The position numbers and the translations under genes are program-made. This document shows positions 14,270 through 56,907 of a stretch of DNA of 64,000 bases, one piece after another. The notes under the pieces are model-generated. The model was not told where the DNA came from, did not search any database, and was given only the letters and a program-made list of their open reading frames with translations. Within the stretch, counting starts at the first letter, position 1. Each line of letters opens with the position of its first letter. The DNA lies in UHGV virus genome UHGV-1374671, one strand, 5' to 3'. The stretch is from a virus.

Positions 14270-15949
14270 ATGATCAAGTACTCTGAAATTCTGACGCCGT
14301 TGCAGCAACACCAGGAAAGAGCCCGGAAACGGGCCCTGGTGCGCGATCTTATCCTGGCTCACTCAACAGGGTCCGGAAAGACTCTCACAGCCATAGCGGC
14401 TGCGGACGCCCTCGGAAAACCCACTACAGTGTTCACGCCGGCGTCCCTGGTTGAGAACTTCCGTAAGGAGCTGGCCAAGCATAAGAAGGGAGGACCTTCG
14501 GTGGAGGTTTGGTCGCTCCCTACCGCAGTGTCCCGCAAGTACAAGGTTCCGGCAGGAAACACGGTCATCATCGACGAGGCCCACGCCTTGCGCAACGAAG
14601 GCACCGCCAGGCAGAAGTACATCAAGGAGCAGCTACAGAACGCCGGCCGCGTGATCGGGCTTACTGGCACTCCGGCATACAACGACATTGCGGATTGGTC
14701 CCAGTTGGTGAATCTGGTTGCACGTAAGCGCGTCGTACCCAGTGACCGCAGCGAGTTCCGCAATCGTTACATCAACGAGCGGGAAGTGCGCCCCGGGCTG
14801 TGGGCCAGGCTTGTTCACGGTGTGAAACCCGGCGTCGTGGACGAGTTGAAGAACGCTGACGAGCTCCGGGAAAAGATGGCGCCCTATGTGGACATCTTCG
14901 ACGCCGACGTCGAGAAGCCGGAGCGGAAGGATGAGGTTATCGAGGTTCCCATGAACCAGCAGCAGATCGGCACCTACAAGTACGTGACGCAGGCCATGCC
15001 TACGGCGCTGTTCTGGAAGCTGACCCACAACCTGCCTCCCAGCAAGGCGGAGGCGAAGTCCCTGAACGCGTTCTATTCCGGCGTCCGACAGGTGGCCAAC
15101 ACACCGGAGGCGTTCTCTGCTGAGCCTGTGGAGCCTGGAGAGAAGATCAAGAGAGCGGTGCAGGAGCTGAAGAAGCGCATGAAGGACAACAAGGGGTTCC
15201 GTGCGCTGGTGTACAGCAATTATCTCGGCTCCGGCATCGATTCCTACGGCAGGTTGCTGGACAAGGAAGGGATACCGTACCGCAAGTTTACCGGTCAGCT
15301 CAGCACTGCTGAAAAGAAGTCCATCGTGGACGCCTACAACAAGGGAGAGGTCCCGGTGATTTTGGGATCCGGCTCGGCGTCGGAAGGGTTGGACTTGAAG
15401 GGCACCAGATTGATTCAGATTCTGGAGCCGCACTTCAACAACGCCAAGACCGACCAGGTGATCGGGCGCGGCATCCGGTACAAGTCTCACGACCATCTTC
15501 CGCCTGATCAGCGCAATGTGACAGTGCAGAAGTACATCAGCACGTTTCCGACCACCAGGAACTGGCTTGGGTTCAAGCGGGAGCCTCAGTCTTCCATTGA
15601 CCAGTACCTGACCAGCAGGGCGGAGGAGAAGGACCAGCTCATAGATCAGGTCAAGAACACACTGATCGACAACACCAAGACAGCAGCATGCAAGTGCAGA
15701 ACAGCGAGGTACGGCTTGAGCAAGATCATTTCATTCTTTGATGTGAAGAACCGCAAAGTGGTACGAGTTCCTATTGAGCAGTGCTACAAGTGCATGTACA
15801 CGCCCCGCAACCACAGCCAGGCCGTTGTGTACGCAGTGCGCGCTGTTACGGAGGACGGCACCAGGCTGACTCGTTTTGTTCCGGCCAAAGAGTACAGAAT
15901 TTTGAAATGCAGGGAATGTGACGAGCATGGCGGACACACCAACATTTGA
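14270..15949 (+). CDS. SNF2/Rad54-family DEAH-box helicase with C-terminal Cys-rich zinc-ribbon-like tail
   Basis: Motif I ILAHSTGSGKTLTA, motif II IIDEAHALRN, motif III LTGTPAYN, motif VI QVIGRGIRY. C-terminus CKCRTARYG...CYKCMY...CRECDEHGGH. Confidence 0.85.
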   Translation: MIKYSEILTPLQQHQERARKRALVRDLILAHSTGSGKTLTAIAAADALGKPTTVFTPASLVENFRKELAKHKKGGPSVEVWSLPTAVSRKYKVPAGNTVIIDEAHALRNEGTARQKYIKEQLQNAGRVIGLTGTPAYNDIADWSQLVNLVARKRVVPSDRSEFRNRYINEREVRPGLWARLVHGVKPGVVDELKNADELREKMAPYVDIFDADVEKPERKDEVIEVPMNQQQIGTYKYVTQAMPTALFWKLTHNLPPSKAEAKSLNAFYSGVRQVANTPEAFSAEPVEPGEKIKRAVQELKKRMKDNKGFRALVYSNYLGSGIDSYGRLLDKEGIPYRKFTGQLSTAEKKSIVDAYNKGEVPVILGSGSASEGLDLKGTRLIQILEPHFNNAKTDQVIGRGIRYKSHDHLPPDQRNVTVQKYISTFPTTRNWLGFKREPQSSIDQYLTSRAEEKDQLIDQVKNTLIDNTKTAACKCRTARYGLSKIISFFDVKNRKVVRVPIEQCYKCMYTPRNHSQAVVYAVRAVTEDGTRLTRFVPAKEYRILKCRECDEHGGHTNI

Positions 15950-32324: not shown

Positions 32325-35300
32325 ATGGAATCCGTAATCCCCGTTCATTATCATCAATTACCGCTCATCACCGGGACGGATATTGTCTACGAAGAGGCAC
32401 TCCCGCTCTGGGACATGAATGCCAAGCGTATCATAGTCGGAGACGGTGTAACGCCAGGAGGCGTACGCATCCCGAACTTCAATGACGACCTGTCCTATGT
32501 GCGCAAGTTCGTACTGGCCGATACTACGGCAGTGACCAAGGACTGGCTGATCTGCACCACTCAGCTTACCGTGAATCTTCCGGAGGATGCCACCGCCATG
32601 TCAGTGGTGCGTATCTCCACGCTGGCGGATGTGGAACCGGTTACGGTCAAGACAGGTGATACGGTGGTGCTGACACTTGGTTCCAGCACCACCGTGGAGC
32701 TGGTGTACGGAGACACCGGATGGGTTGTCACTGAGAACACCAGTGCGGCGGCGGACATGGGAGAATATCTTAAGCGCGAAGCTCTGATGCTGAACGGAGC
32801 AGCGGCCCAGCTGGTGTCCTTCAAGTCCATGACACAGTCCGCATATGACCTCATTACTCCTGTCATCGACGCAGTATATTTCATCAGAGACACCGGTAAA
32901 CTGATCTTCAACGGCGTCGTCTACGGCTCAGGAGGTGGTGGCGGTGGAGAGAGTGGCGTTTCCACGTATCTGTATGTGGCGTATGCGGCAGATGATACCG
33001 GAGCCGGGTTCTCGTTGATACCCACGGACGACCTTCCTTATCGTGCCGAGATTCATGTGCATGTCGAAATTCAGAACCCAACGCTGTCCGATTTCGCCGA
33101 TGCCGTGTGGATCAAGTACATCGCCACCGGTGGAGGCGGTGGAGAGGGAGGCGCGCCGCGCCAGGCCTTCACCAAGGACGACGTCACAGTGGAAGCCACC
33201 GGCGACGACCAGAACGCCGCTTATCTGACACTGTCTTCGATGTTCACGGTTGTCGGCATTCTGGACAACGAGGGAGTACAATGGAATCTGCCATCCCAGT
33301 CGGTCAAAAAGTTGGACAACTCCACTCGCGTGGACATATCTAGTGTGTTGGCTGACAAGGGGATAACTGCTGACAAAATTGTGGACATCTGGTATGTCCT
33401 TTTTGCTGCGTCAGAGAGTGGTGGGGGTACCGGAGGATCTGTTGCCTGGAGCGACGTTACAGGGAAGCCTTCCACATATCCTCCTGCTGCGCACACCCAC
33501 ACCATTTCCCAGGTGGATGGTTTGCAGACCGCGCTGGACAACGCCGGCAAGGTGAAGACAGTCAATGGCATTTCTCCGGATGACACCGGTAACATTACCA
33601 TTGAGACTGGCGGCACGGTGAAGACGGTCAACGGAATCTCTCCTGACGAGTCCGGCAATGTCATTATCGACACCGGATCCGATGTGGATGAGAATCGGCT
33701 GCTGCCCACTTCCGCCAATCACGAGGACATGCTGATTTTCGACGCCACCAGTACGGTCGGCGGAGGCAATGACGAAAGCACCAAGTTTCTGATTCAGATA
33801 CCGGCGGGTGGCAGTCTCATCACGGATACGGCAGCAGGCAATCAGGCTGCCGTGCCCATAGAGGACAACGGCGTTCAGGTCAACGCAGAAGGCGAGATGG
33901 TATTCAGCGGTTCCAATTACTTGAAGATCGCGGCTAATACGCTGCCTGCTGATCTGATGGGAACCGACATGGAGTTCACCATTGACATCCTGTACACTGC
34001 CGAGAGCAAGAGTATACAGTGCCTGTTTGGACGCGGGGACAGCCCCCGTATGGATTTCCTGTTGCGCAGCAGCGGTGTCATGGAGATCGGCGGCGGCCCC
34101 AATCTTGGAAGCGGCTGGCCTTTCAATACCCAGACGCTGCTTACCTTTGATTTGTGGAAGCTGGACAATACCTGGAATTATGCTGTGTACCGCAACGGTT
34201 CTGTTGTTACGACAGGCACCTGGGGGACGGCCAATTTCCGTGGATCTGACCTGTGGATCGGATGGGAAGGCAATACCAGTGGCCGAGAGATGACCGGTAA
34301 GATCAAGGCTTTCAGGCTTACCAACAAGGCGCTGTACAAAGGTGTATCGTTCTCTCCGAATTATCCGTGGAGTGTTCCTGTAAATGTCGGAGAATGGGGT
34401 ACTGTCAACAAGTCCGAGTTTGTGACCAAGGACAGCAACCGCCTGTTACCGGCAACAGATACGGTTCCGTCCGCCAACGTGAACAATCCAGTGATCTTCA
34501 AAGCAATCAGTCGGATTGACAAAACGTACTGGCTGTGTCTGCCTCTCAATGAGGATACGCTGGACAGGTCGAACTACGAGGTGCTTACGACTGTGGAGGG
34601 CACTGCTCCCATTGTAAGCAACGCACCCAGCACTCCCGGTGGTTCGATATACTTCAACGGAAGCTCCTGTTTGCATGGAGAGCTGCCGGCTGCGTTTGGT
34701 GTAGGCGATTTCACAGTCCGCATGTGGATGATGGCTCCTTCCATGACCAGTAGCACGTACCCCCGAACGCTTTTCTCCACGCGCAATGGCAATGCTACCA
34801 GCGGCTCCACCTTCGCGCTGCACTGTCAGCCGGACGGGAACCTGTTCATCTACTCCAACACTGACATCACTCCTCGGGACACTGCTCCGCTCAAGTTGCA
34901 AGCCGGTGTCTGGTACCACCTGGCTGTGGTACGTAAGAACGGTGTCATAACGATCTACGTCGACGGCCAGACATATGCGTCCGGCAATATGACCAACGGC
35001 CTGACCCGCCAGGTGTTCAGCATTGGCGCTTCCTGGGGTTACAGCAGTTACAACGAGGCAGGCACTGTGTACATCTCGTCGCTGGACGTGCTGAACTACG
35101 CAGCGTATGACGGTGAGTTTACAACTCCGACTTACCAGCCCGGAATTCTGGCCGGTGCTGGTTACGAAGTAGCGACGGACGACGAAGTCAAAAGCATGCT
35201 CAGCGTGGCAGGAATTGACGAATCGCGACTGCTGCCCGACCCGGCGGCGGTTTCGGCCAGTCTTGCCGGACACCCGGTGGTGTTCGACGTTCAGGAACTG

Positions 35301-37721
35301 GGAGGAACGGGGGATGCGAATACTCTCCTGCTGATGCATTTTGACGATGACACTGTTGATTATTCTCCGAATGCGCACAGCGCAACGAAAACCGGTGATG
35401 TGTCATTCCAGACCGGTAAGTTCGGAAAATGCTTGAAGTTTGCCTCCGCCTCCGGCGGTTCGTATTTGCAGATTCCAAGCTCAACAGCGTTCAATCTGGC
35501 CAACCGGTCTGCTTGGACATTTGATGTTTGGGTATACATCTCGCAGACGCCGGGGTACACTGCAATACTTGCACAACGACAGGCCAGCAGTCCGTGTTCC
35601 TATCAATTCTGTTTCAGCAGCGGTACTCGGAAACCGCAGTTGTACACGGGAAGTGCGTATGTAGCGACAGGAGAAGTGCCGTTGAATACATGGACGCATG
35701 TTGCCTTCACCTATCTGAACGGAACGTTGAAAATCTGGATCGGCGGTCAGCTGGATTCCACCTTTACAAATGTGTCGCTCACTGATTACGACCTGCCGAT
35801 TGAGATCGGATATCACTATTCCAGCACTGACGAGCAGTTCATCGGACTTCTGGACGAACTTCGTCTGAGTTCCTGCGACCGCACCGCCGACCCGACTGAT
35901 CCGATGTACTCCGCGGACGGAACCTCGTTCACGCCGCCCGCCAAGCCGTATGGGGTCACCTCAAACCGGTTCAAAGTTTCAGACGATGTATTGGTGAGCA
36001 GCGTCAATGACGTGAAGCCTGATGCAAAAGGAAACATCACGTTAGATGCGACAGACATTGTGGAAGAATCCAGACTGCTGCCCACATTGGATTCCGTGCC
36101 GGTCGACCGAAGTGGTAATCCGGTCGTGTTTGATTATCAGTCCGGCATTGACGCGGACACGCTTTGTCTGCTGCACCTGGACGACGCCTCCTGGACGGAC
36201 GCCACGGGAAAGAACACGGTGACGCAGAACGGAAGCGTTGCCAAGGTGTCCGCTAATGGGTACTTTGACAATGCCCTTGATCTCAGTGCCAACCTTAACT
36301 CCGGCAGCCTGAGCTGGTTGACGATCCCGTGGCTGGCAGAGTATGAGAACAGCACCTGGACAATGGAGTTTTTCGCCAAGCCCACCAAGGCTGTGGTGAA
36401 CTTCATGTTTTTCAGTTTCGGCAATTCTCAAGGTTCGTACTTGTCGCTGGGATCTCAGAGTCTTACGAACCTTTGGCTCGGCAACGGGTCTGGTACTTAT
36501 ACCGGTTCGATCAATATGCAGCTCAATACCTGGTACTGGTTTGTTGTGCAGTACGACGGCGCTGCTGTTAAGGTCTATGTGGATGGTACTCTGATTGTGC
36601 AGGGTAACTTCGAGCCGAATTACATTGGCCAGGATCTGCAGTTCGGTAATCTGAATCTGGTCAACAACCAAGACAATACCTTCATCGGGTACCTGGATGA
36701 GTTCCGCTGGTCGAAGGGGCTGCGATACCCCACTGGTGTGATGACCAGACCTGAGGAACCGTTTGGCACCCCTACTAAGAGCTACAAGGTGTCGGAAGCG
36801 GATCTGGTGTTTTCAGACAGCACCCGCCTACTGCCGGAGACTCCCGATAATGGTGCAATTCCGTGCTTCAACAGCACTCCGCCAGAGGGTGTCAATTATA
36901 ATGACTCTCATACTGTGATGCTTGTTCAGGGATCCACTACCAATATGGCACTGGGTACGAAGCTGCCGTTTATGGTGACTGGCACAGTCTCTGCGCAAGA
37001 GGACGGTTCTTTGCTATTTCCGTCAGGCAGTGATAAGCTGGTTACTACGAGTGCAGCGGAAGTAAAGAGGGTGTTCGGAGGCGAGTTCACAGTAGACGTC
37101 TATATGAAACCGACACAGTTTAATAACACAAGTAGACAGGACACTAACTTTTTCTACTTAACCGGGCCGTCTACGTATTACATCTATGGCAGTAACTATA
37201 ACGACTCCGGGAGCGCTGTACAGGATAGGTGGGGTGTTTGGGCCTACGCTGGGCAACGGGTTATTACGTTGCCCAATGCCGAGTATCATCATGCAGCGCT
37301 TGATGTGTACCTAGTGAGCGGTAGCAGGAAATACACCATCTACTATGACGGTGTTCCTGTGCTGACCGGTGACTGGTACACAGATGGGTTGGCAACGGCA
37401 GAAGAAACTACAGATGCGGTGATCACGTTCTTCGGGACTTCAGGTGAGGCCAGCCTTACCAATGCCTACGTGAAAGCGCTGCGTGTTTCAGATATCGCCA
37501 GGTACAAGGGAGTACAGTTTACACCGCCTGCTCATGGTACGTATGGCAACCCTCCTGCAGGCTATTGGGATACGATCAACAAATCCGAGTTTAAGGCGAC
37601 AAGGGTGCGCATTCTTTCTCGTGATCCCAGTACCAGACTGGCCGTAGTTCAGCCGCTGAGACTCCGCAATGGTGTATGGGAAACAGATCCGGATGCCCCT
37701 GAGAAAACTGTGAAATATTGA
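32325..37721 (+). CDS. giant fibre protein (1798 aa): N-terminal IGDGxTxGG module, domain shared with ORF 5213, Gly-rich linkers, five tandem LamG-like domains
   Basis: Five (D/E)xxRLLP linkers, each followed by a ~220-aa jelly-roll with the W.H.A...l.(I/V)(Y/W)(V/I)DG signature (e.g. WYHLAVVRKNGVITIYVDGQ). Full alignment evidence in the finding. Confidence 0.8.
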   Translation: MESVIPVHYHQLPLITGTDIVYEEALPLWDMNAKRIIVGDGVTPGGVRIPNFNDDLSYVRKFVLADTTAVTKDWLICTTQLTVNLPEDATAMSVVRISTLADVEPVTVKTGDTVVLTLGSSTTVELVYGDTGWVVTENTSAAADMGEYLKREALMLNGAAAQLVSFKSMTQSAYDLITPVIDAVYFIRDTGKLIFNGVVYGSGGGGGGESGVSTYLYVAYAADDTGAGFSLIPTDDLPYRAEIHVHVEIQNPTLSDFADAVWIKYIATGGGGGEGGAPRQAFTKDDVTVEATGDDQNAAYLTLSSMFTVVGILDNEGVQWNLPSQSVKKLDNSTRVDISSVLADKGITADKIVDIWYVLFAASESGGGTGGSVAWSDVTGKPSTYPPAAHTHTISQVDGLQTALDNAGKVKTVNGISPDDTGNITIETGGTVKTVNGISPDESGNVIIDTGSDVDENRLLPTSANHEDMLIFDATSTVGGGNDESTKFLIQIPAGGSLITDTAAGNQAAVPIEDNGVQVNAEGEMVFSGSNYLKIAANTLPADLMGTDMEFTIDILYTAESKSIQCLFGRGDSPRMDFLLRSSGVMEIGGGPNLGSGWPFNTQTLLTFDLWKLDNTWNYAVYRNGSVVTTGTWGTANFRGSDLWIGWEGNTSGREMTGKIKAFRLTNKALYKGVSFSPNYPWSVPVNVGEWGTVNKSEFVTKDSNRLLPATDTVPSANVNNPVIFKAISRIDKTYWLCLPLNEDTLDRSNYEVLTTVEGTAPIVSNAPSTPGGSIYFNGSSCLHGELPAAFGVGDFTVRMWMMAPSMTSSTYPRTLFSTRNGNATSGSTFALHCQPDGNLFIYSNTDITPRDTAPLKLQAGVWYHLAVVRKNGVITIYVDGQTYASGNMTNGLTRQVFSIGASWGYSSYNEAGTVYISSLDVLNYAAYDGEFTTPTYQPGILAGAGYEVATDDEVKSMLSVAGIDESRLLPDPAAVSASLAGHPVVFDVQELGGTGDANTLLLMHFDDDTVDYSPNAHSATKTGDVSFQTGKFGKCLKFASASGGSYLQIPSSTAFNLANRSAWTFDVWVYISQTPGYTAILAQRQASSPCSYQFCFSSGTRKPQLYTGSAYVATGEVPLNTWTHVAFTYLNGTLKIWIGGQLDSTFTNVSLTDYDLPIEIGYHYSSTDEQFIGLLDELRLSSCDRTADPTDPMYSADGTSFTPPAKPYGVTSNRFKVSDDVLVSSVNDVKPDAKGNITLDATDIVEESRLLPTLDSVPVDRSGNPVVFDYQSGIDADTLCLLHLDDASWTDATGKNTVTQNGSVAKVSANGYFDNALDLSANLNSGSLSWLTIPWLAEYENSTWTMEFFAKPTKAVVNFMFFSFGNSQGSYLSLGSQSLTNLWLGNGSGTYTGSINMQLNTWYWFVVQYDGAAVKVYVDGTLIVQGNFEPNYIGQDLQFGNLNLVNNQDNTFIGYLDEFRWSKGLRYPTGVMTRPEEPFGTPTKSYKVSEADLVFSDSTRLLPETPDNGAIPCFNSTPPEGVNYNDSHTVMLVQGSTTNMALGTKLPFMVTGTVSAQEDGSLLFPSGSDKLVTTSAAEVKRVFGGEFTVDVYMKPTQFNNTSRQDTNFFYLTGPSTYYIYGSNYNDSGSAVQDRWGVWAYAGQRVITLPNAEYHHAALDVYLVSGSRKYTIYYDGVPVLTGDWYTDGLATAEETTDAVITFFGTSGEASLTNAYVKALRVSDIARYKGVQFTPPAHGTYGNPPAGYWDTINKSEFKATRVRILSRDPSTRLAVVQPLRLRNGVWETDPDAPEKTVKY

Positions 37722-45168: not shown

Positions 45169-48100
45169 ATGGATGATATCAACGTGACGCCTGTTTTGGC
45201 GGACAGCTCCACAGTGGAGAACATTCAGGTTCGCCCGCAGCGTCCTCCCAAAACGGCAGCTGACTGGGTGCGCGACATGCGCATGTCTCCTGAAGTGAAC
45301 AAGACCACTGTCGGTGTGGAGACGGACCGGATAACTCCTGAGTTGCTGATGGCCACGTCGTCCAAGCTGCTTGGTATCTCCAGACGGGAGCAGGATCCGG
45401 ATCCCAAGGATTCCCTGCTCTTCCAGCGCTTCTACGGGCCGGCCGAATACTTTGCAGAACACATTCTGCGGGACGGCAACAAGGTGGCCCGTAACCTGCT
45501 GTGGAAAGCAACCAACAAGGGCAAGATTGACTTCGTACCGTCAGGAGCATTGGATCAGCACGTCAGCGATGTGTTCTACAGCAGCAAGCTGGCCCAGATG
45601 ATCGACGGGTCGTCTCCTTTGGAAACGGTGGACGCTTCCTTCAAGACCACCCGTATCGGCGAGGGCGGCGTCGCAGATGTGCAGTCGGCTCCTGATGAGA
45701 TGCGTACAGTGCAGCCTTCCTACTTCGGATACCTAGACTCCGTGCGCTGCTATTCGGACGATACCGAACTCATGACCAAAAATGGCTGGAAATTCGTTAC
45801 CGATATTACGGAAGACGATGAGCTTGCATGTTATATGGACGGCAGGTTGGAGTACCACAAACCAACCGCATTGAATGTATACGACTACAAGGGCAAGATG
45901 TACGGATACAAAGGTACGCATATCTCGTACCTGGTGACACCGAATCACCGGATGCATTCCAGATGTTATGGAGAACTCAGAGATGGGCGTCCTTGTGGTT
46001 ATAACATTCGTACAGCTGAGAGCATTCACGGTAAGAACAGGGTTGTAGATTCTGCCTGCCATTTGCCGTTACTGTGCAATGAGGATCAGAAATACTTTGA
46101 GCTCCCTGTGGTAGGTCCTAATCTGAAGAAAGAGCAGGTTCATGGCAATCCGCCAATGGGCGCCAGCTTGAAGAACGTGGACAAAGTGGACATCGTGAAG
46201 TTTGCCGAGTTCCTCGGATGGTACCTGGCTGAGGGTTCCTATGTGATCAATGAAACCAAAGGATACTACCGCGTTGATATTGCACAGTCCCCGGAAGTCA
46301 GTGCGGAAAACTACGAGCATATCAGACAGCTGATAGAATCTCTTCCCTTCAACGCAACCAATCCAGGTGCCGAGGAAAAAGCAAAAAGGGGCGGGCATGC
46401 CTTGTCCATCGCCAGAAAACAGCTGACCATATACGTCAGTCAGTTTGGAAAGTGCGAAGACAAGTACATACCTGAGTGGATTTTCTCAGCTCCGTTACAG
46501 GCCCGCAAAGCGTTTTGTTGGGCCCTTCTGCAAGGAGATGGACGGGAACAGAGACATCTCTGCACAAAGTCAAAGCGACTGGCTACTGACTTTGCCCGCC
46601 TGCTTTTTGAATTGGGTGAATCTGCCAAAGTATACCACGAAAAAGAAACCAGATATGAAAACCATCCTGGTATCTGGAATGTTTACTGGCACACCCGCAA
46701 AGAACGTCTTTTGGCTGGAAAAACACATAAGCACAAGGAAGGTGAATATTTCACTGAAGACTATACCGGCAAAGTGTACTGCCCGACCATACCTGGCGGT
46801 CTGGTGTACTGCCGCAGAGGCGAAAAGAGCGTTGGTTTCTGGTGCGGTAATAGTCCGGAGAGGTTACGCGTCGGATTGGATATGTATATGACCAAGAATG
46901 TGGTCAAGGGATCCGATGGAAAGCTGTACCAGAGATTCATCAACGCGCGTACCGGCAAGGAGGAGCTGGTTGACTCCGTAACAGCTTCCAGATCCATTGT
47001 GGCAGCGCCTGAGATGATGGACGCCGATACCAAGTCCATCTTCGCTCTTGGTGGTCGTACTGGCGTACGTATCGTACCCAAGGATAAGGTTGATTATTAT
47101 TTACCCAGAGCCGACGATGCGTACAGCATGTCGTCCAATATGGTGCCCATGTTCAATGGTGTGAAGGAAATGCGCCTGCTGATGGGATGCCTGCATCCGG
47201 GTACTCCGTTGATCACCATATCGGCGAAGAACGAGATCAACATCAAGCCGGCGAAATCCATTGGCAAGAATGCTTATGGAGTGCCTGGCTGCGATGCCAA
47301 AGGCAAGTCGCTGGGGTATCTGATCCGTAACAGCATTGCCAAGTTTCCCCAGAAGCGCAAGTGGTTCAAGAAGGTCGTGCTGATGTCGGGGCGGTCCCTG
47401 ATCACCAGCTACGATCACAGATGGCCAGTGCTGCGGGACGACAAGCTGGAGCTGGTGAACGCATCCGATCTTCAGCCCGGGGACAAGGTGCTCAGATCCA
47501 CGTTCAAGGATCTGCCCAATCGACGCACCTTTTTGCGCGGCGTACTGGTGAACAAGGATGTTGCCACGCTGCTGGGCTGCATCGTAAGGTCGGTCACCAA
47601 ACCTGACCCGGACAAGCTCCGGGTGGTGTACCAGCCTTCTCAGAAGAAGTTCATCGAGGCAGCCATCGAACGGCTCAAACTGGAGAACTCCCGCTTCTAC
47701 GCCAATGCCGGCGAGAAGTGCCTTGCCATTCATGACAGCAACTTCATCCAGTGGGTGGAGAAGGAGATCTGTCTGGAGCCGGAAGAGCGCAAGGTCCCCA
47801 CTGTGATTCTCAGTGCGTGCCTGGACATTGCGTCTCACTTCATCGACGCTTACACGGCCGACACCACCAAGGTCGGCATCGACAGCAACGAGGACATGTG
47901 GATCCTGGATATCCCCAGCATGATCTGCCGTGACGGTCTTGCGTTGCTGCTTGCCAGAATGCAGACGGATACCCTGTACCGGGATGCTGTGCGGGCAGAC
48001 GGAGTCAATCTGGCGTTGAAGCTGGTGGAACAGACCCCCACCTTCGGGGATTCCATTGTGGACGAGGTGAAAATTATACTCGAAGTAGAAAAGGTCCCGC

Positions 48101-51100
48101 TCATGATTGACATCGATATCGATGACAACATGTATGCGACCGCCAATGGAATCATCACACACAACTCCAAGTACCCGTTGCAGGCCATCTCCCTGCTGGA
48201 GCGGGAAGCTCCTTTGGTGAGAGGGCTGGATGAGGCGTCCGGCAGGGACATCCCGTCGTTGGCAGGCAAGTATCTCGGCGCCAGATTCGCCAACCAGGGC
48301 GGCACCGTCACCGCTGTGCGCAAGGACCGCATCGACGTCGTCTACGACGACGGCACCAAGGGCAGCGTTTCCCTGTACCAGAATTTCCCGATGAACGCCA
48401 AGGGGTACATCACCAACACGCCTGTGGTGAAAGCGGGACAGTCCTTCAAGAAGGGAGATGTATTAGCGGCGTCGAACTATACAGACGACAAAGGCGTGGC
48501 GGCCATCGGCAAGAATCTGAGATCCGGCTGGCTGTCCTGGAAGGGCGGCACCTATGAAGACGCTGTTGTAATCTCCGAATCAGCCGCCAAGAAGTTGACC
48601 AGCCGTACCATGTACAAATCGGCAGTCGACCTCGACAAGACAGTCAGTTTGGGAAAGAAGAACTACGTCTCCTGGAAGCCGTCCGAGTACACCAAGGACC
48701 AGCTGTCGGCGCTGGATGACAACGGAATCATTAAGCCGGGTTCCGTGCTTCGCAAAGGAGACCCGATGATTCTGGCGGTGCAGACATCCGAACCCTCTCC
48801 CGGGACGCTTGGCAAGCGCGTGCTGACGGATATCTCCGAGACCTGGGAACACGACCATCCGGGTGTGGTCACTGACGTGGTCAAGACCAGGAAGGGTGTG
48901 AAGGTGTTTGCCATTGTGGAAGCACCTGCGGAAGTGGGGGACAAGGTAAGCGGGAACTTCGGCAACAAGGGAGTAGTCTCGCAGCTTGGTAGAGAGTCCC
49001 AGGAAGAACAGGACGACGAGAACCAGGACTTCCAGATCCAGAAGATCGTACCGGACGCCATGATGCCCATTGGAGAGGACGGCAAGCCTCTGGATCTGCT
49101 GTTCAGTCCTCTTGGGCTTATCTCCCGTACGAACGCTTCCCAGATCCACGAGGCTCTTCTGGGCAAGATCGCCCGTAAGACTGGAAAACCGTTCGTCATG
49201 CCGGCCTTCTACAAGGGCGACCTTACGGAGTTCGTGGAGAACCAGCTGAAACAGAACAAGGTCAGCGACACGGAAGACCTGACGGATCCTTATACCGGCA
49301 GGAAGATCCCCAAAGTGCTGACCGGTGTGTCGTACATCTACAAGCTCAAGCACCAGGCCGAGTCCAAGCTGTCCGCACGCGGTACTGCCGAGTACACTGC
49401 CGAGGGCACGCCGGGTGGTTCTGGACTCACTGGGAGCAAAAGGTACGGAACTTTGGAGCAGTCCGCGATGGTCGGCCACGGTGCGTTTGACAACCTGCTT
49501 GATGCGAAACTCCTGCGTGGCCAGTCGAACTCGGATTTCTGGCGCAGCATCCGTACTGGAGAGATCCCGACGATTCCTGGAGAGCCCCTGGTGCACAAGA
49601 AGTTCTTCGCCCACCTTACAGGCTCCGGTGTGAACGTGCGCAAAACCCCGAAGGGCATCAGCGTGTTCTCGTTGTCCAACGACGATGTGAAAGAACTTGC
49701 CGGCCCCCGTGAGCTGAAATCCAAGGACACCTACGAAGCCAAGACATTCCGTCCCATCGATGGAGGACTCTTTGGTCAGGACCTGTTCGGCCCCAATGGA
49801 GACCGCTGGGCATACATCCAGCTGGACGAACCTCTGCCGAACCCTGTAATGGAGGAGCCTCTGGCGCGTCTTCTCAGAATGTCCACCAAGGACTTCATGG
49901 CAGTGGCCGCCGGCAAGGCTGAAGTGAATGGAATGAAATCCTCCGCCGACATCAAGGAACGCCTGTCCAGGATCAACTTGAAGGCCGAGGAACAGCAGGC
50001 CAAGCAGGAGTTCAAGGACGCCCCGATGTCTAAGAAGGACGCGGCGCTGAAGCGTTATCGGGACATCGCCCGCATGGCTGCGAATGAAGTGTCCCCTGAC
50101 CAGTACATGCTGGATAGGATTCCGGTGCTGCCTCCTGTCTTCCGTCCTGTCAGTACGCACAACGGACTGACCATGGTGGCCGACAGCAACTACCTGTATG
50201 CGCAGATGCTGGACGCCAGAGACGACGCCCGGGAAGCCCGCAACCTGCCCAAGGAATACCAGCAGCAGGCCAGGGAAAACCTGTACCGAAGCTGGAAGGA
50301 GCTGACCGGCATGTACGAGCCCGAGAACGTGAAGCTGAAGAACAAGCACGTGCGGGGGCTTCTGAAGTGGGCGCTTGGTGACAGTCCAAAATGGTCCGCG
50401 TTTCAGAGAAAGGTATTGGGCTCCACGGTGGACACGGTAGGCCGTGGTGTTATCACTCCGGATCCGCGCCTGAAGCTGAACCAGCTCGGCGTTCCTCTGC
50501 CGATGGCGTTGGGCATCTATGAGCCGTTCGTTGCTCGATCCATGGTCAAGCAGGGGTACTCTCCTGTGGAAGCCATGAAGATGATCAAGGTCCAGGACAA
50601 GCGCGTGATACCAGTGCTGCTTAACGTGATGAAGAACAGCCCTGTGCAGCTGAATCGGGCACCTTCGCTCCACAAGCTGAACATCATGGGATTCGAGCCT
50701 GTGCTCACTGCCGGGCACGCTGTCCGGGTAAACCCGTCCATTGTGGTGCCCTTTGCGGCGGACTTCGACGGCAACTGCTGCGATTTTGATAGTGTAATTT
50801 TCCTAAAATTATCAAAATCTGCGCTTGAAAAAACTGCTTTTATGTGCTATGTTGATCATAGTAACAAACCCGAACAAAACAAGGAGGTTTCTATGATCAC
50901 GGAAGACACAAGAGTCGTGGTGTTCAACCCGGATGAGACTGACCCGGATACTGTGTACTGCTCTATGAAGATCGGGGAGTTCCCGCGTAAGGGGGTGCCG
51001 GTGAAAGACCGGAACGGTGCTTTGGTGTACCCGGTTCCAGAAGGGGTAAGCGTACTGTCCTGCGACCCAGTTACAGGTGCTCCGAAGTTCTGCCCTGTGT

Positions 51101-52542
51101 CGGCTGTAACAGTGGAGGAGAACTGCCATACGGTAGAGTTGACTCTCGGCAGCAGAAAGATCATCGTGTCGGATAACGAATCCCTGGCCGCGTTCGACAG
51201 CAAGGCAGGTACGTTGATCAAAGTGTCCCCGGCAGAGATCGGAGATCGGATGATTCCTGTTCTGAAAAAGCAGCAGCTGCCATATGGCCCGTTCGGCACC
51301 AGGGACCTCGGCTGGATGTTCGGTGCGTTCATCTCCGATGGCTGGGTCACGCACAATATGGTGGGATACGCCAAAGTGGAAGCCAACAAGCGTGCTGAGT
51401 TCGTCAGGATCATGCGTGCGTATCACGAGAACTTTACTTGCAACGAATACACTGATCGTCCGCAGGCTGGAAAGAACAAGTTGGGCGCCTCCGTTAAGTT
51501 GCACCTGTGCAGCAAATCCCTGGCAGACTGGATGCGCAACTGGCAGCTCATAAACGAGGACTGTCCTGCGGCAGAGCGTGCTGCGCTGCGGAAGCAGATA
51601 AACAGCAAGATGATTCAGTACGGCTCCGAGGACTTCCTGTGGGGGCTGTTCTCCGGTCTCCTGGACGGTGACGGGTCCATCAGCAAAAACACGACGATGG
51701 AGAAGCCGCGCTTTACAGCCAGATTCAGCACCTCCAGCAAACAGCTGGCGGACGACATCTGCGCACTGTGTTATCGACTGGGTCTGCGTTACTCCATGAC
51801 CGTGGTACCTCCCAGAGGATTCTCCAATACGGCATACATCATCATCCCGTCCACTATTGACTTGCATGCCAAGCTGGACAAGCTCACCTGTATTGGTGAG
51901 CGGGAGATTCAGCTTATCTCGGAATGGAAGCAGCAGCCGTCGTACAAAGACACCAAAGACATGATCCCGCTGTCTGTTAAAGAAGCGGAAGTGCTGATTA
52001 AGCTGGCGAACGCCAGGAAAGACGTAGGAGTGTCCTCCGGGATCTACAAGACTAGAAAGAAGTCCTGTATCTACGGTGGTCGTGTTGGGCTGATGCGTTA
52101 CTGCGAGGAAATCAAGGAGATGTTCCCTGAGTTATACGCCCGTATTAAAAACGAGGACACCATTTGGCAGACTGTCACTTCCGTGGAGGACGCCGGCAAT
52201 CGCCAGGTGTTCGACTTGATGGTTGAGGGTACGAAAGTGTTTGCCATCAACAACGGCGTGATTATCTGGGACACCGCCAACGTGCACGTACCGGTATCCG
52301 ACAACGCCAGACGGGAGACCTATGAGAAGATGTTCCCGGAACGCAATCTGATCTCCATGCGTGAGCGCAAGGTGCTGTACAAGCCCGAAAAGGAGTACAT
52401 GCAGGGGATCTACGTGGCGACCCGCATGAAGAAGGGCAAGGATGTCCGACCGAAGATCTTCGGATCTGTGGAAGAAGCGCGTCAAGCGTTACGCAAGGGC
52501 ATTATTGATATTGATGATCCTATTGAAATACGCAAGCAATAA
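45169..52542 (+). CDS. bacterial-type RNA polymerase: beta C-terminal half fused in frame to beta' N-terminal half, interrupted by two inteins
   Basis: Aligns by eye to E. coli beta: TRIGEGGVADVQS...PSYFGY vs RISALGPGGL...PTHYGR; GDKVSGNFGNKGVVSQ vs GDKMAGRHGNKGVISK; PLGLISRTNASQI vs PLGVPSRMNIGQI. Then directly to beta': TFRPIDGGLFGQDLFGP vs TFKPERDGLFCARIFGP; PVLPPVFRP; PVLLNRAPSLHKLNIMGFEP; FAADFDGN...TANVHVP vs NADFDGDQMAVHVP. Confidence 0.85.
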   Translation: MDDINVTPVLADSSTVENIQVRPQRPPKTAADWVRDMRMSPEVNKTTVGVETDRITPELLMATSSKLLGISRREQDPDPKDSLLFQRFYGPAEYFAEHILRDGNKVARNLLWKATNKGKIDFVPSGALDQHVSDVFYSSKLAQMIDGSSPLETVDASFKTTRIGEGGVADVQSAPDEMRTVQPSYFGYLDSVRCYSDDTELMTKNGWKFVTDITEDDELACYMDGRLEYHKPTALNVYDYKGKMYGYKGTHISYLVTPNHRMHSRCYGELRDGRPCGYNIRTAESIHGKNRVVDSACHLPLLCNEDQKYFELPVVGPNLKKEQVHGNPPMGASLKNVDKVDIVKFAEFLGWYLAEGSYVINETKGYYRVDIAQSPEVSAENYEHIRQLIESLPFNATNPGAEEKAKRGGHALSIARKQLTIYVSQFGKCEDKYIPEWIFSAPLQARKAFCWALLQGDGREQRHLCTKSKRLATDFARLLFELGESAKVYHEKETRYENHPGIWNVYWHTRKERLLAGKTHKHKEGEYFTEDYTGKVYCPTIPGGLVYCRRGEKSVGFWCGNSPERLRVGLDMYMTKNVVKGSDGKLYQRFINARTGKEELVDSVTASRSIVAAPEMMDADTKSIFALGGRTGVRIVPKDKVDYYLPRADDAYSMSSNMVPMFNGVKEMRLLMGCLHPGTPLITISAKNEINIKPAKSIGKNAYGVPGCDAKGKSLGYLIRNSIAKFPQKRKWFKKVVLMSGRSLITSYDHRWPVLRDDKLELVNASDLQPGDKVLRSTFKDLPNRRTFLRGVLVNKDVATLLGCIVRSVTKPDPDKLRVVYQPSQKKFIEAAIERLKLENSRFYANAGEKCLAIHDSNFIQWVEKEICLEPEERKVPTVILSACLDIASHFIDAYTADTTKVGIDSNEDMWILDIPSMICRDGLALLLARMQTDTLYRDAVRADGVNLALKLVEQTPTFGDSIVDEVKIILEVEKVPLMIDIDIDDNMYATANGIITHNSKYPLQAISLLEREAPLVRGLDEASGRDIPSLAGKYLGARFANQGGTVTAVRKDRIDVVYDDGTKGSVSLYQNFPMNAKGYITNTPVVKAGQSFKKGDVLAASNYTDDKGVAAIGKNLRSGWLSWKGGTYEDAVVISESAAKKLTSRTMYKSAVDLDKTVSLGKKNYVSWKPSEYTKDQLSALDDNGIIKPGSVLRKGDPMILAVQTSEPSPGTLGKRVLTDISETWEHDHPGVVTDVVKTRKGVKVFAIVEAPAEVGDKVSGNFGNKGVVSQLGRESQEEQDDENQDFQIQKIVPDAMMPIGEDGKPLDLLFSPLGLISRTNASQIHEALLGKIARKTGKPFVMPAFYKGDLTEFVENQLKQNKVSDTEDLTDPYTGRKIPKVLTGVSYIYKLKHQAESKLSARGTAEYTAEGTPGGSGLTGSKRYGTLEQSAMVGHGAFDNLLDAKLLRGQSNSDFWRSIRTGEIPTIPGEPLVHKKFFAHLTGSGVNVRKTPKGISVFSLSNDDVKELAGPRELKSKDTYEAKTFRPIDGGLFGQDLFGPNGDRWAYIQLDEPLPNPVMEEPLARLLRMSTKDFMAVAAGKAEVNGMKSSADIKERLSRINLKAEEQQAKQEFKDAPMSKKDAALKRYRDIARMAANEVSPDQYMLDRIPVLPPVFRPVSTHNGLTMVADSNYLYAQMLDARDDAREARNLPKEYQQQARENLYRSWKELTGMYEPENVKLKNKHVRGLLKWALGDSPKWSAFQRKVLGSTVDTVGRGVITPDPRLKLNQLGVPLPMALGIYEPFVARSMVKQGYSPVEAMKMIKVQDKRVIPVLLNVMKNSPVQLNRAPSLHKLNIMGFEPVLTAGHAVRVNPSIVVPFAADFDGNCCDFDSVIFLKLSKSALEKTAFMCYVDHSNKPEQNKEVSMITEDTRVVVFNPDETDPDTVYCSMKIGEFPRKGVPVKDRNGALVYPVPEGVSVLSCDPVTGAPKFCPVSAVTVEENCHTVELTLGSRKIIVSDNESLAAFDSKAGTLIKVSPAEIGDRMIPVLKKQQLPYGPFGTRDLGWMFGAFISDGWVTHNMVGYAKVEANKRAEFVRIMRAYHENFTCNEYTDRPQAGKNKLGASVKLHLCSKSLADWMRNWQLINEDCPAAERAALRKQINSKMIQYGSEDFLWGLFSGLLDGDGSISKNTTMEKPRFTARFSTSSKQLADDICALCYRLGLRYSMTVVPPRGFSNTAYIIIPSTIDLHAKLDKLTCIGEREIQLISEWKQQPSYKDTKDMIPLSVKEAEVLIKLANARKDVGVSSGIYKTRKKSCIYGGRVGLMRYCEEIKEMFPELYARIKNEDTIWQTVTSVEDAGNRQVFDLMVEGTKVFAINNGVIIWDTANVHVPVSDNARRETYEKMFPERNLISMRERKVLYKPEKEYMQGIYVATRMKKGKDVRPKIFGSVEEARQALRKGIIDIDDPIEIRKQ
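45748..48165 (+). mobile_element. intein 1 (806 aa) with LAGLIDADG homing endonuclease, in the beta segment
   Basis: Begins with Cys (CYSDDTELMTKNGWKFV), block B VTPNHRM, LAGLIDADG motifs LGWYLAEGSY and ALLQGDG, ends ...GIITHN followed by Ser. Confidence 0.7.
50776..52272 (+). mobile_element. intein 2 (499 aa) with LAGLIDADG endonuclease, inserted inside the NADFDGD catalytic loop of beta'; atypical C-terminus ...IIWD
   Basis: Starts CCDFDSVIF right after DFDGN. LAGLIDADG motifs MFGAFISDGW and LFSGLLDGDGSI. C-terminal block VFDLMVEGTKVFAINNGVIIWD followed by T(ANVHVP); the canonical ending would be VVHN. Confidence 0.6.
50780..50895 (+). promoter_or_regulatory. AT-rich island inside intein 2 with TTGAAA-N17-TATGTT, SD AAGGAGG and an in-frame ATG
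   Basis: tgtaattttcctaaaattatcaaaatctgcgcTTGAAAaaactgcttttatgtgcTATGTTgatcatagtaac...AAGGAGGtttctATG at 50893, same frame as the host ORF. Local GC is far below the surrounding ~58%. Confidence 0.45.
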
Positions 52543-52762: not shown

Positions 52763-53746
52763 ATGAGTGAGAAATACAGACATCTCTACGGACTGGGTAA
52801 AGCGGCTGTGGCTGTACTTACTCCGGAAGCAGAGCAAGCGGCTGTTCAGCCTCCGATGGACCCTGCCATGGCTGGCGGCGCTCCTCCGATGGATCCGATG
52901 GCGGCCGGAGGAATGCCTCCGCAGGGCGGCGCTGGAGCTCCTCCGATGGGTGGCGCTCCGATGCCGCCGCCGGCAGGCGGACAGATCCCGCCGGAAATCC
53001 TCCAGGACCAGATGTTCATCCAGTTTCTGCAGGAGGCGCTGGGGGTGTCCCTTGATCCGGCGTCGGGCATGTTCATGGGCCCGAATGGCGAACAGATCCC
53101 GCCCCAGCTTATCATTGAGGCCTACCAGGAGTTCCAGACGATGCAGGCCCAGGGCGGCATGCCGCCTGCAGGAGCTGGGGCTCCGCCTGCGGCAGGCATG
53201 GATCCGGCTATGGCAGCAGGTGGTGCTCCGATGCCGGCAGGAGCCCCGCCGATGGATCCCATGGCTGCGGGAATGCCTCCGGAAGCGGCTGGTGGAGTTC
53301 CTCCGGAAATGGGAGGAACCCCTGAAGAAGTGCCTCCGGAAATGGGCGCTGCACCTGAAGCAGGTGCTCCTGCGCCGGCTGCTGGACCGGAAGCGATGAT
53401 GCAGGAACTGCTGTCTGGAGTAGAGGCCGTGCTGCAGTCCTTCTCCGGAAAGCTGGACAAGCAGCTCAGTGCCATCCAGGACAAGATCGAGGCTCTGAAG
53501 ATGGATGTCGAATCACTGCGGGACACCACGGACCAGCGCACCAAGATGGAAGAGGACGAGGCTGCCCGTATCCGGGAAGAGCTGGAAGCAGAGCTTGTGC
53601 CCACCGCCGTTGCCCAGAAGGAGGCCAGCATTTCCATTCCGGCTCCGCAGCCGATCAAGATGCCGACCGTTGAGAACAAGCCGAGCACCAGGAAGCGTAC
53701 CGGCACTCCGAACCTGTTCTCCGTGATCCAGGGAGGAAAACGATGA
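52763..53746 (+). CDS. Pro/Ala/Met/Gly-rich low-complexity protein with RHLYGLxK N-terminus and coiled-coil C-terminus
   Basis: SD AAGGAG. MSEKYRHLYGLGKAAV. Repeats GGAPPMDPMAAGGMPP. Confidence 0.5.
   Translation: MSEKYRHLYGLGKAAVAVLTPEAEQAAVQPPMDPAMAGGAPPMDPMAAGGMPPQGGAGAPPMGGAPMPPPAGGQIPPEILQDQMFIQFLQEALGVSLDPASGMFMGPNGEQIPPQLIIEAYQEFQTMQAQGGMPPAGAGAPPAAGMDPAMAAGGAPMPAGAPPMDPMAAGMPPEAAGGVPPEMGGTPEEVPPEMGAAPEAGAPAPAAGPEAMMQELLSGVEAVLQSFSGKLDKQLSAIQDKIEALKMDVESLRDTTDQRTKMEEDEAARIREELEAELVPTAVAQKEASISIPAPQPIKMPTVENKPSTRKRTGTPNLFSVIQGGKR
52850..53350 (+). repeat. low-complexity Pro/Ala/Met-coding repeats
   Basis: Seen in the translation. Confidence 0.5.
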
Positions 53747-54600: not shown

Positions 54601-56907
54601 GTGACCATGTTGACGACACTGGGCAGAGAACTGATTCGGGCAAAGCTCCCCGAGAAGTACAAGGGGTACGCGGATCAGGTTCTGGACAAGAAAACACTGA
54701 CCAATCTGATGACCGAGATCGCCAGAGAGGATCCGGAAGGGTACATCGACGTTCTGCAGGATCTCAACAACATTGGACAGGAAGTCGTGTCCACATACGG
54801 ACGGGACACCTCGCTCTCGTATGCAGACCTGAAAGTCGACAATGAGATCAAAGCCCTGAACAAGCGCCTGCGGCAGGTCATCAAGGGAGTCCTCAATGAC
54901 GATTCCCTTACCAGCGAGCAGAAGGAAGAGAAGATCAAGGAACTGGGATACAAGTACACGCAGAAGGTGCAGGACGCGGTATTCCAGGACAACGACAAGC
55001 GAGGAACGTCGCTGGCCTCCCAGATCAACTCAGGCTCTCGTGGAAATAAAACCCAGTTGATGCAGCTCCAGTTCGGCAACATGCTGATGAAAGATGCACT
55101 CAACCGGGACATTCCTTATCTGATGATAGACCCGTTCGTCCATGGTGCGTCACCGATGTCGTACTGGGTGTCCGCGTCCAGTGGGCGCAAGGGGTTCTTC
55201 GATGTGCAGGCCGCCACCGGACAGGCCGGATATCTGGGCAAGCAGGTGACAGCCGCCACACACAGAACCACCATTGAGAAAGAGGACTGCGGCACCACCG
55301 ACACCGGAGTGCCGTTTCCTGCCAACAGCACGAAGAACGTGGGCGCGGTTCTGCTGCGCCCCTTCCACAAATACCCGGCAGGCACGGTTGTCACTGAGAA
55401 GATGGTTGCCGAGGCCGATGACGACGAGGAGATGATTCTGCGCAGTCCAACCACCTGCAAGTGCAAGGACGGCATCTGCGCCAAGTGCAATGGGCTGGGA
55501 GAGAATGGGAAGTTTCCGGCAGTGGGCGAGTATGTGCCGCTGAATGCTGCGCGTTCTTTTGTTGAGCCGGTTACGCAAGGAGGGATCTCGTGTCTGCATC
55601 CTGGAACACAGGTACGTATGGCAGACTGGTCTATCAAAGCACTGCGTGATATCAGGGTAGGCGATCGCGTTATGGGCGTTCACACCGATGGTTCTTATGA
55701 ACCCGCCCTCGTCACCCGGACGTTCGATAATGGCATTGTTCCGATGTACTTGACAAAGTTCCGTAAGGGCACTGATAAGATTGCCGTGCTGATGTCCACC
55801 ACATGTCACAAAATGCTCTTATCTGTCGACGGGGATGCTCCTGCCATTCTTCCTGTAGGTACAGATGGCCAGCTCAGCGCGTGTCAGACTATCGGACCTG
55901 CAGGGTATACTGATAAGCAGATTAAGATGTCACACTTCAAACGCATCTCTCAGGAATATATCGGAGACATGCAATCGCTGGATATTGAGATCGACAACGA
56001 CTCCCATCTGTTTCTGTTGGCCAATGGCCTGGTGGTTTCCAATTCCAAACATGGCGCGGGTATTGGAGGCAAGCGATGGGTCGATCCCGAGGGGCCTGAC
56101 CAGCCGCACGGGTTCCGTGCCCTTGAGCGTCTGTTCATGGCTCCCAGCAACTTCCCGGGCGGAGCCGTACTTGCCCCGCAGGACGGCACGGTAAGCAACA
56201 TTCAGAAGGCCTCCCAGGGCGGCCATTACATCACGGTGGGCAACAAGACGCTGTACTGCTCTCCAGATCGCACTATGAAAGTCAAAGTCGGGGACAAGGT
56301 GTCCGCCGGCGACGTACTTACCAATGGTGTGCCCAATCCTGCCGAGGTGATGGATCTCAAAGGACTGGGAGAGGGCCGGCATTACTTCGTCAACAAATTG
56401 AACGAAACCTTGAAGGCACAGGGCTGGGCAACAGACCGCAGAAATATCGAGGCGTTTACACGCAGCATGATTAGTAAGGTCAAAATCACCGACCCTGACG
56501 GATACAAGTCGTATCTGCCTGGTGATATTGCCGATTACAACGAGATCATGGCTGACTGGGAGCCCAGGGAAGGATCCGTCACAGTGAAAGCGGATCAGGC
56601 GCTGAACAAGTACCTGGAGAAACCGACCCTGTACTTCAGCGTCGGCACCAGGATCACCCCGTCAGTTGTGCAGCAGTTGAAGAAATACAAGTTTGATACT
56701 GTGACGGTGTCGGATAAGGAGCCTCCTTTCAAAGCTCAGTTCCTGCGTCCTGCTGTTGTGCTGCAGAACGACAAGAACTGGTTGCCCAGGCTGGCGGGAG
56801 AGCGGCTGCAGCCAGCACTGTTTGATGCAGCGCAGAAGGGCATCACCGACGAGTACGACTCGCCGAGTTACGTTGACAAAATCGTGGCGGCGCCATTTAA
56901 ACCATAA
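54601..56907 (+). CDS. RNA polymerase beta' C-terminal half, with mini-intein
   Basis: [20 protein letters not shown] vs [28 protein letters not shown] vs VTEDDCGT; Zn/Cys cluster; EPVTQGGIS...SKHGAGIGG vs GEPGTQLTMRTFHIGG. Confidence 0.85.
   Translation: [768 protein letters not shown]
55591..56043 (+). mobile_element. mini-intein (151 aa, no endonuclease) in the beta' trigger-loop region
   Basis: [13 protein letters not shown]..., block B [9 protein letters not shown], ends LANGLVVSN followed by Ser. Confidence 0.75.

Follow-up and report, generated by a model that had tools for sequence, protein, structure and literature searches.

The locus described here raises the question of how a multisubunit RNA polymerase (RNAP) can function when an intein interrupts the very loop that holds its catalytic magnesium and leaves that loop encoding a residue other than the expected one. 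Within the window, by which we mean the whole stretch of 64,000 nucleotides analysed from virus genome UHGV-1374671, an open reading frame (ORF) on the plus strand at 45169-52542 encodes the β subunit fused to the N-terminal part of β′, and the third of its three in-frame inteins lies in the NADFDGD loop of β′. The translation of 50701-52335 (+) reads ...VVPFAADFDGN/CCDFDSVIFL...VFAINNGVIIWD/TANVHVPVSD, where the slashes mark the splice junctions, here and below. The last five codons of the N-extein (50761-50775, +), which form the Mg-binding loop, specify D-F-D-G-N, with Asn (AAC) where the third Asp is expected, so that the encoded loop does not carry all three of the Asp residues that ligate Mg A. 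A first-pass annotation of this DNA had proposed an intein in the NADFDGD loop with non-canonical termini and a predicted DFDGN site, and had concluded that either the splicing or the active site must be out of the ordinary. This proposal is supported by the present analysis and applies to an entire intein family, and the translation confirms the flanks FAADFDGN and TANVHVP, the Asn at −1, the Thr at +1 and the IIWD end with its penultimate Trp and terminal Asp. The span originally assigned to the intein, 50761-52275, does contain it, but also takes in the five DFDGN codons and the codon of the +1 Thr, the intein proper being 50776-52272.

The intein (50776-52272, +) comprises 499 residues, Cys1870 to Asp2368 of the ORF, which are arranged as a split HINT splicing domain with a nested LAGLIDADG endonuclease. 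Block A, CCDFDSVIFLKL (50776-50811, +), starts with Cys1, the N-terminal nucleophile, and its register C1..D5-S6..I8 is canonical. It is followed by a poorly conserved N-lobe insertion of about 36 residues (50833-50940, +), and the predicted local distance difference test (pLDDT) score of the AlphaFold2 model falls below 50 at query residues 30-65. An internal Met within this insertion is the start of many database gene calls, and as a result most family members are deposited as shortened 'intein/homing endonuclease' ORFs in which the N-terminal junction is missing. In block B, aligned to that of Ssp DnaB, the core S-D-N-E (51169-51180, +) replaces T-x-x-H, placing Ser at B:7 and Glu at B:10. 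The first LAGLIDADG motif, LGWMFGAFISDGW (51301-51351, +), has near-invariant G179, W180, G183, D188 and G189, and the second, LWGLFSGLLDGDGS (51631-51678, +), which is the one recognized by Pfam LAGLIDADG_3, has conserved G294, D297 and D299. Block F, RQVFDLMVEGTKVF (52201-52242, +), comprises the invariant Asp480 as well as Lys487, which stands at the position of the His in the P-H-N-F of Ssp DnaB. Block G, VFAINNGVIIWD (52237-52272, +), corresponds to a hairpin VFAI-NNG-VIIW, whose strands lie at query residues 498-501 and 505-508 in the AlphaFold2 model, and closes with the penultimate Trp and the terminal Asp (GAC). The C-extein then starts with T-A-N-V-H-V-P (52273-52293, +), Thr2369 being the +1 nucleophile. 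The replacements of the block B His by Glu and of the block F His by Lys are thus departures from the canonical pattern additional to those that had been pointed out before.

We consider it very probable that this insert is a genuine intein with canonical boundaries. The AlphaFold2 model, built on 22 homologs (pLDDT 84.4, predicted template modelling score 0.84), has a predicted HINT fold, and its best Foldseek matches in the PDB are full-length LAGLIDADG inteins, namely TliVMA (expectation value, E, of 6e-19), PI-PfuI (1e-17) and PI-SceI (~1e-12), within a range that extends to 1e-11; I-DmoI and I-Tsp061I are matched as well. With a profile of the family splicing domain alone, mini-inteins of the PDB, among them those of TFIIB and Ssp DnaB, are matched at E values from 4e-7 to 1e-6, and the two LAGLIDADG motifs (GAFISDGW and GLLDGDGS) are both conserved, with Pfam LAGLIDADG_3 matching the third intein at E 7e-9. 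The Pfam Intein_splicing model reaches 29.2 bits on the third intein alone, under its cut-off of 35.8 bits, and NCBIfam intein_Cterm (TIGR01443) does not match it; two further inteins of the same phage, int2 and int4 (see below), score 15.5 and 15.0 with the latter model against a cut-off of 15.6 bits. The best NCBIfam match of the third intein is to the intein part of the archaeal A″ model PRK14898 (E 1e-14), far under the cut-off. Considering the defining features of class 1 inteins, the insert has a Cys at position 1, a Thr at +1 and the block F Asp (F:4, which is Asp480 in VFDLMV), and it lacks the T-x-x-H of block B and the C-terminal His-Asn. An assignment to class 3 was rejected, as inteins of that class have no position-1 nucleophile, a Trp-Cys-Thr triplet and a Cys at F:4 (PMC4031507), and the third intein starts with Cys and has Asp480 at F:4.

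A search with the intein against 1.84 billion cluster representatives returned 610 matches at E <1e-3 and 150 at E <1e-30, and junctions were counted in the best 150 of the 610 matches, with both junctions anchored in the retrieved sequences. The N-terminal junction reads DxDGN/C in 105 cases, DxDGD/S in three and DFDGE/C in one, whereas the C-terminal junction (n=146) is D/T in 139 and D/S in six, with one aberrant case, so that 145 of the 146 end in Asp; the penultimate residue is Tyr (80), Trp (50) or Phe (9). In an alignment of 107 full-length members, whose identity to the window copy is only ~30-55%, Trp464, Asp480 and Asp499 are present in all 107, Cys1 in 104 (Ser in the other three), Asn134 in 104, Ser132 in 103 and Glu135 in 91, the +1 residue being Thr in 103 and Ser in four; Ser136, Lys487 and Gly494 are further near-invariant positions of the splicing domain. 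The B:10 position is occupied by Glu in 91 members, Asp in five, Ala in four, His in three, Gln in two and Pro in two, and its His is confined to the three members that start with Ser1. A profile alignment to the Ssp DnaB mini-intein sets S-x-N-E over T-A-N-H and T-K-V-F over P-H-N-F. The conserved His residues are hence replaced family-wide, by Glu in block B, by Lys in block F and by an aromatic residue at the penultimate position, and the terminal Asn is replaced by Asp. The alignment shows strong selection on Cys1, Thr+1, Asp480 and Asp499 across the family, and a terminal Asp is shared by the entire clade of inteins rather than being peculiar to the window copy.

The family is seen only in sequences of uncultured phages, the related viral contigs measuring 164-179 kb. 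A tblastn search of 50,697 deposited phage records gave no member, and a megablast search with the region likewise returned nothing. Among 185,579 species genomes the family is present only on one 2.6-kb contig of a metagenome-assembled genome, which is probably phage, the remaining cellular matches being canonical GyrA and terminase inteins that have only the endonuclease in common with it. We found no description of this intein family in the searchable literature, and no paper combining 'intein' and 'NADFDGD'. One β′ protein with a family member (P0122, 935 residues) has the N-terminal junction ...ISPLSAH/CLAFST..., without the DFDGN loop, and a C-terminal end IIVWGAS; this copy is probably frameshifted or decaying.

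The residue at −1 follows the presence of the intein. Comparing 70 extein residues on each side, this residue is Asn in 97 of 97 alleles that carry a Cys1 intein and Asp in 54 of 54 intein-less alleles, which answers the question, raised by the first-pass annotation, of whether homologous phage polymerases carry DFDGD. No compensating change was found over this distance of 70 residues in either direction, as the 97 and the 54 alleles are told apart by the −1 column alone; the next best column scores 0.43. All 27 intein-less homologs retrieved in a first protein search have the third Asp, which is then followed by T, Q, A or N. In a pattern scan of the IMG/VR DNA, the intein-less form with Asp (DxDGD-TxNxHxP) was found at 32 loci, 28 of which are polymerases, and the intein-less form with Asn (DxDGN-TxNxHxP) at none; the intein-bearing form with Asn (DxDGN-CxDxD) accounts for three polymerase loci (L045, L063 and L069) among 53, and the intein-bearing form with Asp (DxDGD-CxDxD) for no polymerase locus among 76. 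An artefact or a one-off mutation was rejected as the source of the Asn, given that the N/C junction occurs in 105 independent cluster representatives and that the codon is AAC in the DNA.

Two rare and distant sets of related inteins occupy the loop with Asp at −1. The type II inteins (P0175, P0181 and P0184) combine this Asp with Ser1 and with S-x-D-H in block B, thus having the canonical His; almost no further members emerged from a third protein search. The type III lineage (L181 and L180), which inserts at the same DFDGD/T site and is ~23-25% identical to the others, has Ser/Thr1 after the Asp, the junctions reading MDFDGD/TIQGEW... in L181 and ADFDGD/SILNM... in L180, with S-[SD]-D-H in block B and the end ...VVQD/T. 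The type III loci span ~3-2554 in L181, with a masked stretch, and 316-2944 in L180, with a frameshift in the N-terminal part. A further member, P0143, has Cys1, Glu at −1 and Gln at B:10. A strict covariation is thus observed, of Cys1 and Glu at B:10 with Asn at −1 and of Ser/Thr1 and His at B:10 with Asp at −1, to which P0143 adds a third combination, Cys1 with Gln at B:10 and Glu at −1. Position B:10 adjoins the N-terminal scissile bond (PMC4031507), and in the pairs N-E, D-H and E-Q the −1 side chain and the B:10 residue appear to complement each other in a contact.

The comparison of alleles with and without the intein is also informative in respect to mobility. The intein-less homolog P0001 is 98% identical over the 389-residue spliced extein query, from which it departs by a few conservative changes, and it reads FAADFDGD/TANVHVP. 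Deletion of the 499 intein residues from the window protein gives AADFDGN/TANVHVP, exactly colinear with the AADFDGD/TANVHVP of P0001, in agreement with the earlier claim that removal of the insert restores colinearity. At the DNA level the contig of P0001 (L162) has GGC GAT/ACA where the window has GGC AAC/TGC...TGG GAC/ACC, the flanks being about 93-94% identical. Besides window and P0001, alleles with and without the intein are represented by P0030 and P0002 and by L063 as compared to L017 and L032, and the pairs window/P0001, P0030/P0002 and L063/L017 differ at the −1 residue as well. This presence/absence polymorphism is such as homing would give and suggests that the third intein is an active, mobile LAGLIDADG element, belonging to a family which targets the Mg-binding loop of RNAP β′. 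The P0143 member (806 residues) resides in a glycosyltransferase-like protein, at the look-alike site GTPDFDGE/...VWD/TQLRLE, an insertion that is probably due to ectopic homing. Another intein-less homolog, P0007 (333 residues), reads NMDFDVD, a change of the loop Gly to Val that is either genuine or due to an error of sequencing.

How such an intein would splice, and what would become of the Asn, can be rationalized as follows. We propose class-1-type splicing with a rewired active site, in which an N-to-S acyl shift at Cys1 would be followed by transfer of the N-extein to Thr+1, by release through cyclisation of the terminal Asp499 to an anhydride, in place of the usual Asn, and by an O-to-N shift that would establish the peptide bond. 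Indeed, cyclisation of a terminal Asp or Gln is accepted for some inteins (PMC4031507). The rewired residues would be the Ser at B:7 and the Glu at B:10, which replace Thr and His, together with Asp F:4, a Lys for the block F His and a Trp or Tyr for the penultimate His. The Asn at −1 would be imposed by the intein itself, as it would pair with the block B Glu in an active site that requires it. Thioesters of Asp are prone to close to a cyclic anhydride and to hydrolyse, the oxygen ester that arises with Ser/Thr1 being less so; a Cys1 intein placed after the native Asp would thus tend to cleave rather than to splice, an outcome that an Asn at −1 would avoid. Since this Asn adjoins the insertion point, it would also travel with the intein by co-conversion during homing.

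According to this proposal the spliced β′ loop would be DFDGN-T, the junction peptide expected if the Asn is kept being DFDGN-TANVHVPVSDNAR. The carbonyl of Asn can still bind Mg, and in a working polymerase the Asn would serve as an uncharged ligand of Mg A, the penalty being made up for by a better splicing yield. In the E. coli RNAP the third Asp ligates Mg A only, Mg A and Mg B being bridged by the other two (PMC13198411), which is why Asn at this third position may be the least harmful substitution. We give the full account, including the Asn staying in place and being tolerated, an even chance of being correct.

A number of observations weigh against this account. The third Asp of NADFDGD has been described as universally conserved (PMC13198411, PMC5856549). 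In agreement, it is Asp in all 54 intein-less relatives, and the viral DNA scan yielded not one intein-less locus with Asn as compared to the 28 RNAP loci with Asp. In two-metal polymerases, the rate usually drops by orders of magnitude when an Asp that ligates a metal is changed to Asn. Such a costly Asn is hard to reconcile with the fact that the Cys1 form of the intein (type I) is by far the most abundant and diverse one at this site. Moreover, Asp499 is never Asn in ~145 sequences, and Asn usually cyclises at least as well as Asp. No intein residue is said to be more conserved than the His at B:10, for which only two exceptions were on record in 2014 (PMC4031507), and for this reason an active site without it may not run the standard chemistry. 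Finally, the splicing of the third intein is itself a prediction from its sequence.

To a second explanation we attribute a lower but still appreciable probability. Here the boundaries are canonical as well, but an Asp would be made from the −1 Asn in the course of splicing or immediately afterwards, and the mature loop would be the native DFDGD. Four routes can be envisaged: the block B Glu, at the usual place of His B:10 and so close to the backbone nitrogen of Cys1, could deprotonate this nitrogen, which would attack the Asn side chain with release of NH3 and formation of a succinimide or imide, whereby the scissile bond would be activated and an Asp would finally result; Cys1 could act as a deamidase nucleophile; the Asn amide could be moved to the anhydride of the terminal Asp; or a Mg-bound water could hydrolyse the Mg-coordinated amide in the assembled active site. 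The third Asp is invariant elsewhere, and yet type I is dominant and the most diverse (105 versus 5 alleles), which argues for a low cost to the host and hence for a regenerated Asp; however, an efficient Mg-assisted self-repair would make Asn nearly neutral in any RNAP, and Asn is never seen there. The exchange of His B:10 for a carboxylate only alongside a −1 Asn also speaks for a conversion, although P0143, with its Cys1, −1 Glu and block B Gln, suggests that a Cys1 active site can do without Asn. The absolute conservation of the terminal Asp, never Asn, counts in favour of it as well, but types II and III also end in Asp even though they have no Asn to convert. Imides at the backbone nitrogen of Cys form spontaneously in model peptides (PMC11775684). 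Nevertheless, every one of the four routes requires new chemistry. To our knowledge, no intein alters a residue of its extein.

The remaining explanations fare much worse. It is very unlikely that the gene is a dead or non-essential copy, either because the insert no longer splices or because a second intact β′ gene or the host enzyme does the work. The window represents 64 kb of a genome that is likely ~165-180 kb long, as its related contigs are 164-179 kb, which speaks for such a reading; but a tblastn search revealed no β′ paralog within the window, the 7.4-kb ORF is intact, four in-frame inteins are maintained across two polymerase genes, and strong purifying selection acts on the splicing residues and the exteins in more than 100 diverged lineages.

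Even less credible is that the junctions are shifted by one residue, so that a piece N-C...I-I-W would be excised between Gly and Asp, the 'terminal' Asp of the insert would in fact be the third Asp of the polymerase, and the product would be DFDG-D-T. Such a shift requires no substitution, and the 100% conservation of the Asp at the end of the insert likewise speaks for it. An ungapped alignment of block G to Ssp DnaB indeed puts the Trp on the Asn and the Asp on +1, but in the model the last hairpin, VFAI-NNG-VIIW, ends at Trp498 and is then followed by Asp, just as NFVA-ND-IIVH is followed by Asn in DnaB, the difference being an extra residue in the turn. The shifted junctions would moreover require cleavage after Gly and after Trp, without a cyclising residue or a +1 nucleophile, and the register of block A, counted from the first Cys, is canonical. 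In 145 of 146 intein alleles the Asp is followed by Thr or Ser, as compared to T, Q, A or N in intein-less ones, and this restriction to the intein alleles indicates that the position is constrained as a +1 nucleophile. The protein P0192 (581 residues) has a related intein five residues upstream, GGF/SCVGH...SVFD/SADFDGD, which also ends in Asp and whose +1 Ser replaces the Asn of NADFDGD; in this case a shift would delete a conserved Phe, which only the canonical boundaries keep. A different boundary that restores DFDGD, the outcome that the first-pass annotation had named as contrary to its own interpretation, is thus disfavoured, and since canonical boundaries give the canonical product DFDGN-TANVHVP, the dilemma that it posed stands in a sharper form.

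Cleavage without ligation, in which both junctions would be cut, leaving β′ in two pieces, and the −1 Asn would cyclise to a C-terminal succinimide and then yield isoasparagine (an Asp side chain with an amidated alpha-carboxyl), restoring a carboxylate ligand, is just as improbable, for although G-N/C resembles a canonical C-terminal splice junction and these phage polymerases are already divided over several genes, Cys1 and the +1 Thr/Ser would be superfluous and yet are almost invariant, and we know of no precedent for a chain break inside a metal-binding loop.

The gene that harbours the intein (45169-52542, +) encodes 2457 residues, or 1264 once its three inteins are subtracted. Its β part matches Pfam RNA_pol_Rpb2_6 (E 5e-43) and its β′ part matches RNA_pol_Rpb1_2 (E 8e-19) and Rpb1_1 (E 0.003), so that homology to Rpb1 domains 1-2 flanks the loop, and the ORF also matches the LAGLIDADG and intein-splicing Pfam models. 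The C-terminal part of β′ is encoded by a separate gene (54601-56907), with three small ORFs in between, and contains the fourth intein. The first intein, int1 (45748-46851, 368 residues), ends in WCGN/S and has TPNH in block B; int2 (47188-48165, 326 residues) ends in THN/S and has SYDH; and int4, a mini-intein in the gene of the β′ C-terminal part (55591-56043, 151 residues), ends in VSN/S and has TTCH. These three inteins of the same phage are all canonical, with the block B His and the terminal Asn, and int2 and int4 share the N-terminus CLHPGT. Between the polymerase genes, an ORF at 52763-53746 encodes a low-complexity protein of 327 residues rich in Pro, Ala, Gly and Met, which is kept in the related contigs L162 and L182. 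Elsewhere in the window, whose large ORFs all lie on the plus strand, we noted a Gp34-like long-tail-fibre trimerisation domain (5213-8644), a SNF2-type helicase (14270-15949) and a protein of 1798 residues with Laminin_G_3 domains (32325-37721).

Either of the two better outcomes, the Asn being kept or the Asp being regenerated, would be new, and there is a substantial chance that either the chemistry or the polymerase biology is novel. If the Asn is kept, these phages would have a natural multisubunit RNAP that works although it lacks one of the three Asp residues considered universal in living organisms, with direct consequences for our view of the binding and use of Mg A. If the Asp is regenerated, protein splicing can include the editing of a residue, by chemistry that has not been described for inteins. 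The covariation series (Asn-Cys1-Glu, Asp-Ser/Thr1-His and Glu-Cys1-Gln) shows the active site of an intein co-adapting with the −1 extein residue, and is relevant to the engineering of inteins for awkward junctions. The family illustrates clearly, too, how a selfish element can force a change upon the catalytic centre of an essential enzyme.

The third intein can be compared to known systems as follows. With the class 1 LAGLIDADG inteins PI-SceI, PI-PfuI and TliVMA/PhoVMA it shares the modelled fold, with its split HINT domain and two LAGLIDADG motifs, as well as Cys1, the block F Asp and the +1 Thr, and, like them, it occupies a highly conserved insertion site with presence/absence polymorphism in near-identical alleles. 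Unlike them, it has Glu, Lys and Trp/Tyr in place of the His of blocks B, F and G, respectively, ends in Asp and is accompanied by a changed −1 extein residue, its sequence identity to solved inteins being ~10-13%. The CIV RNR intein and the Pab and Mma Pol II inteins, with a terminal Asp or Gln (PMC4031507), resemble it in having a non-Asn terminal residue that is still able to cyclise; those are, however, isolated variants of otherwise canonical inteins, whereas the Asp of the present inteins does not vary throughout a very large family and in three further related lineages, and is combined with the loss of all the conserved His residues. The Tko CDC21-1 intein, the only functional one without His B:10 in a 2014 review (PMC4031507), similarly activates its N-terminal junction without a block B His, as the third intein is predicted to do, but it relies on a compensating Lys58 (PMC4031507), whereas in the present family a Glu stands at B:10 itself and covaries with the −1 residue and with Cys/Ser1. 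In respect to RNAP genes, inteins are known in the archaeal Mja rPol A′ and A″ and Nph rPol A″ and in the eukaryotic and viral RPA2, RPB2 and RPC2 (PMC1635734). We found no literature report of an RNAP intein inside the DFDGD loop or of one altering a catalytic residue, the insertion site of the Mja A′ intein not having been checked. As in the present case, the known RNAP inteins lie in the most conserved parts of multisubunit RNAP subunits, close to the active site; in contrast to it, the eukaryotic and viral ones are found in the second-largest subunit and those of A″ in the C-terminal half of the largest one.

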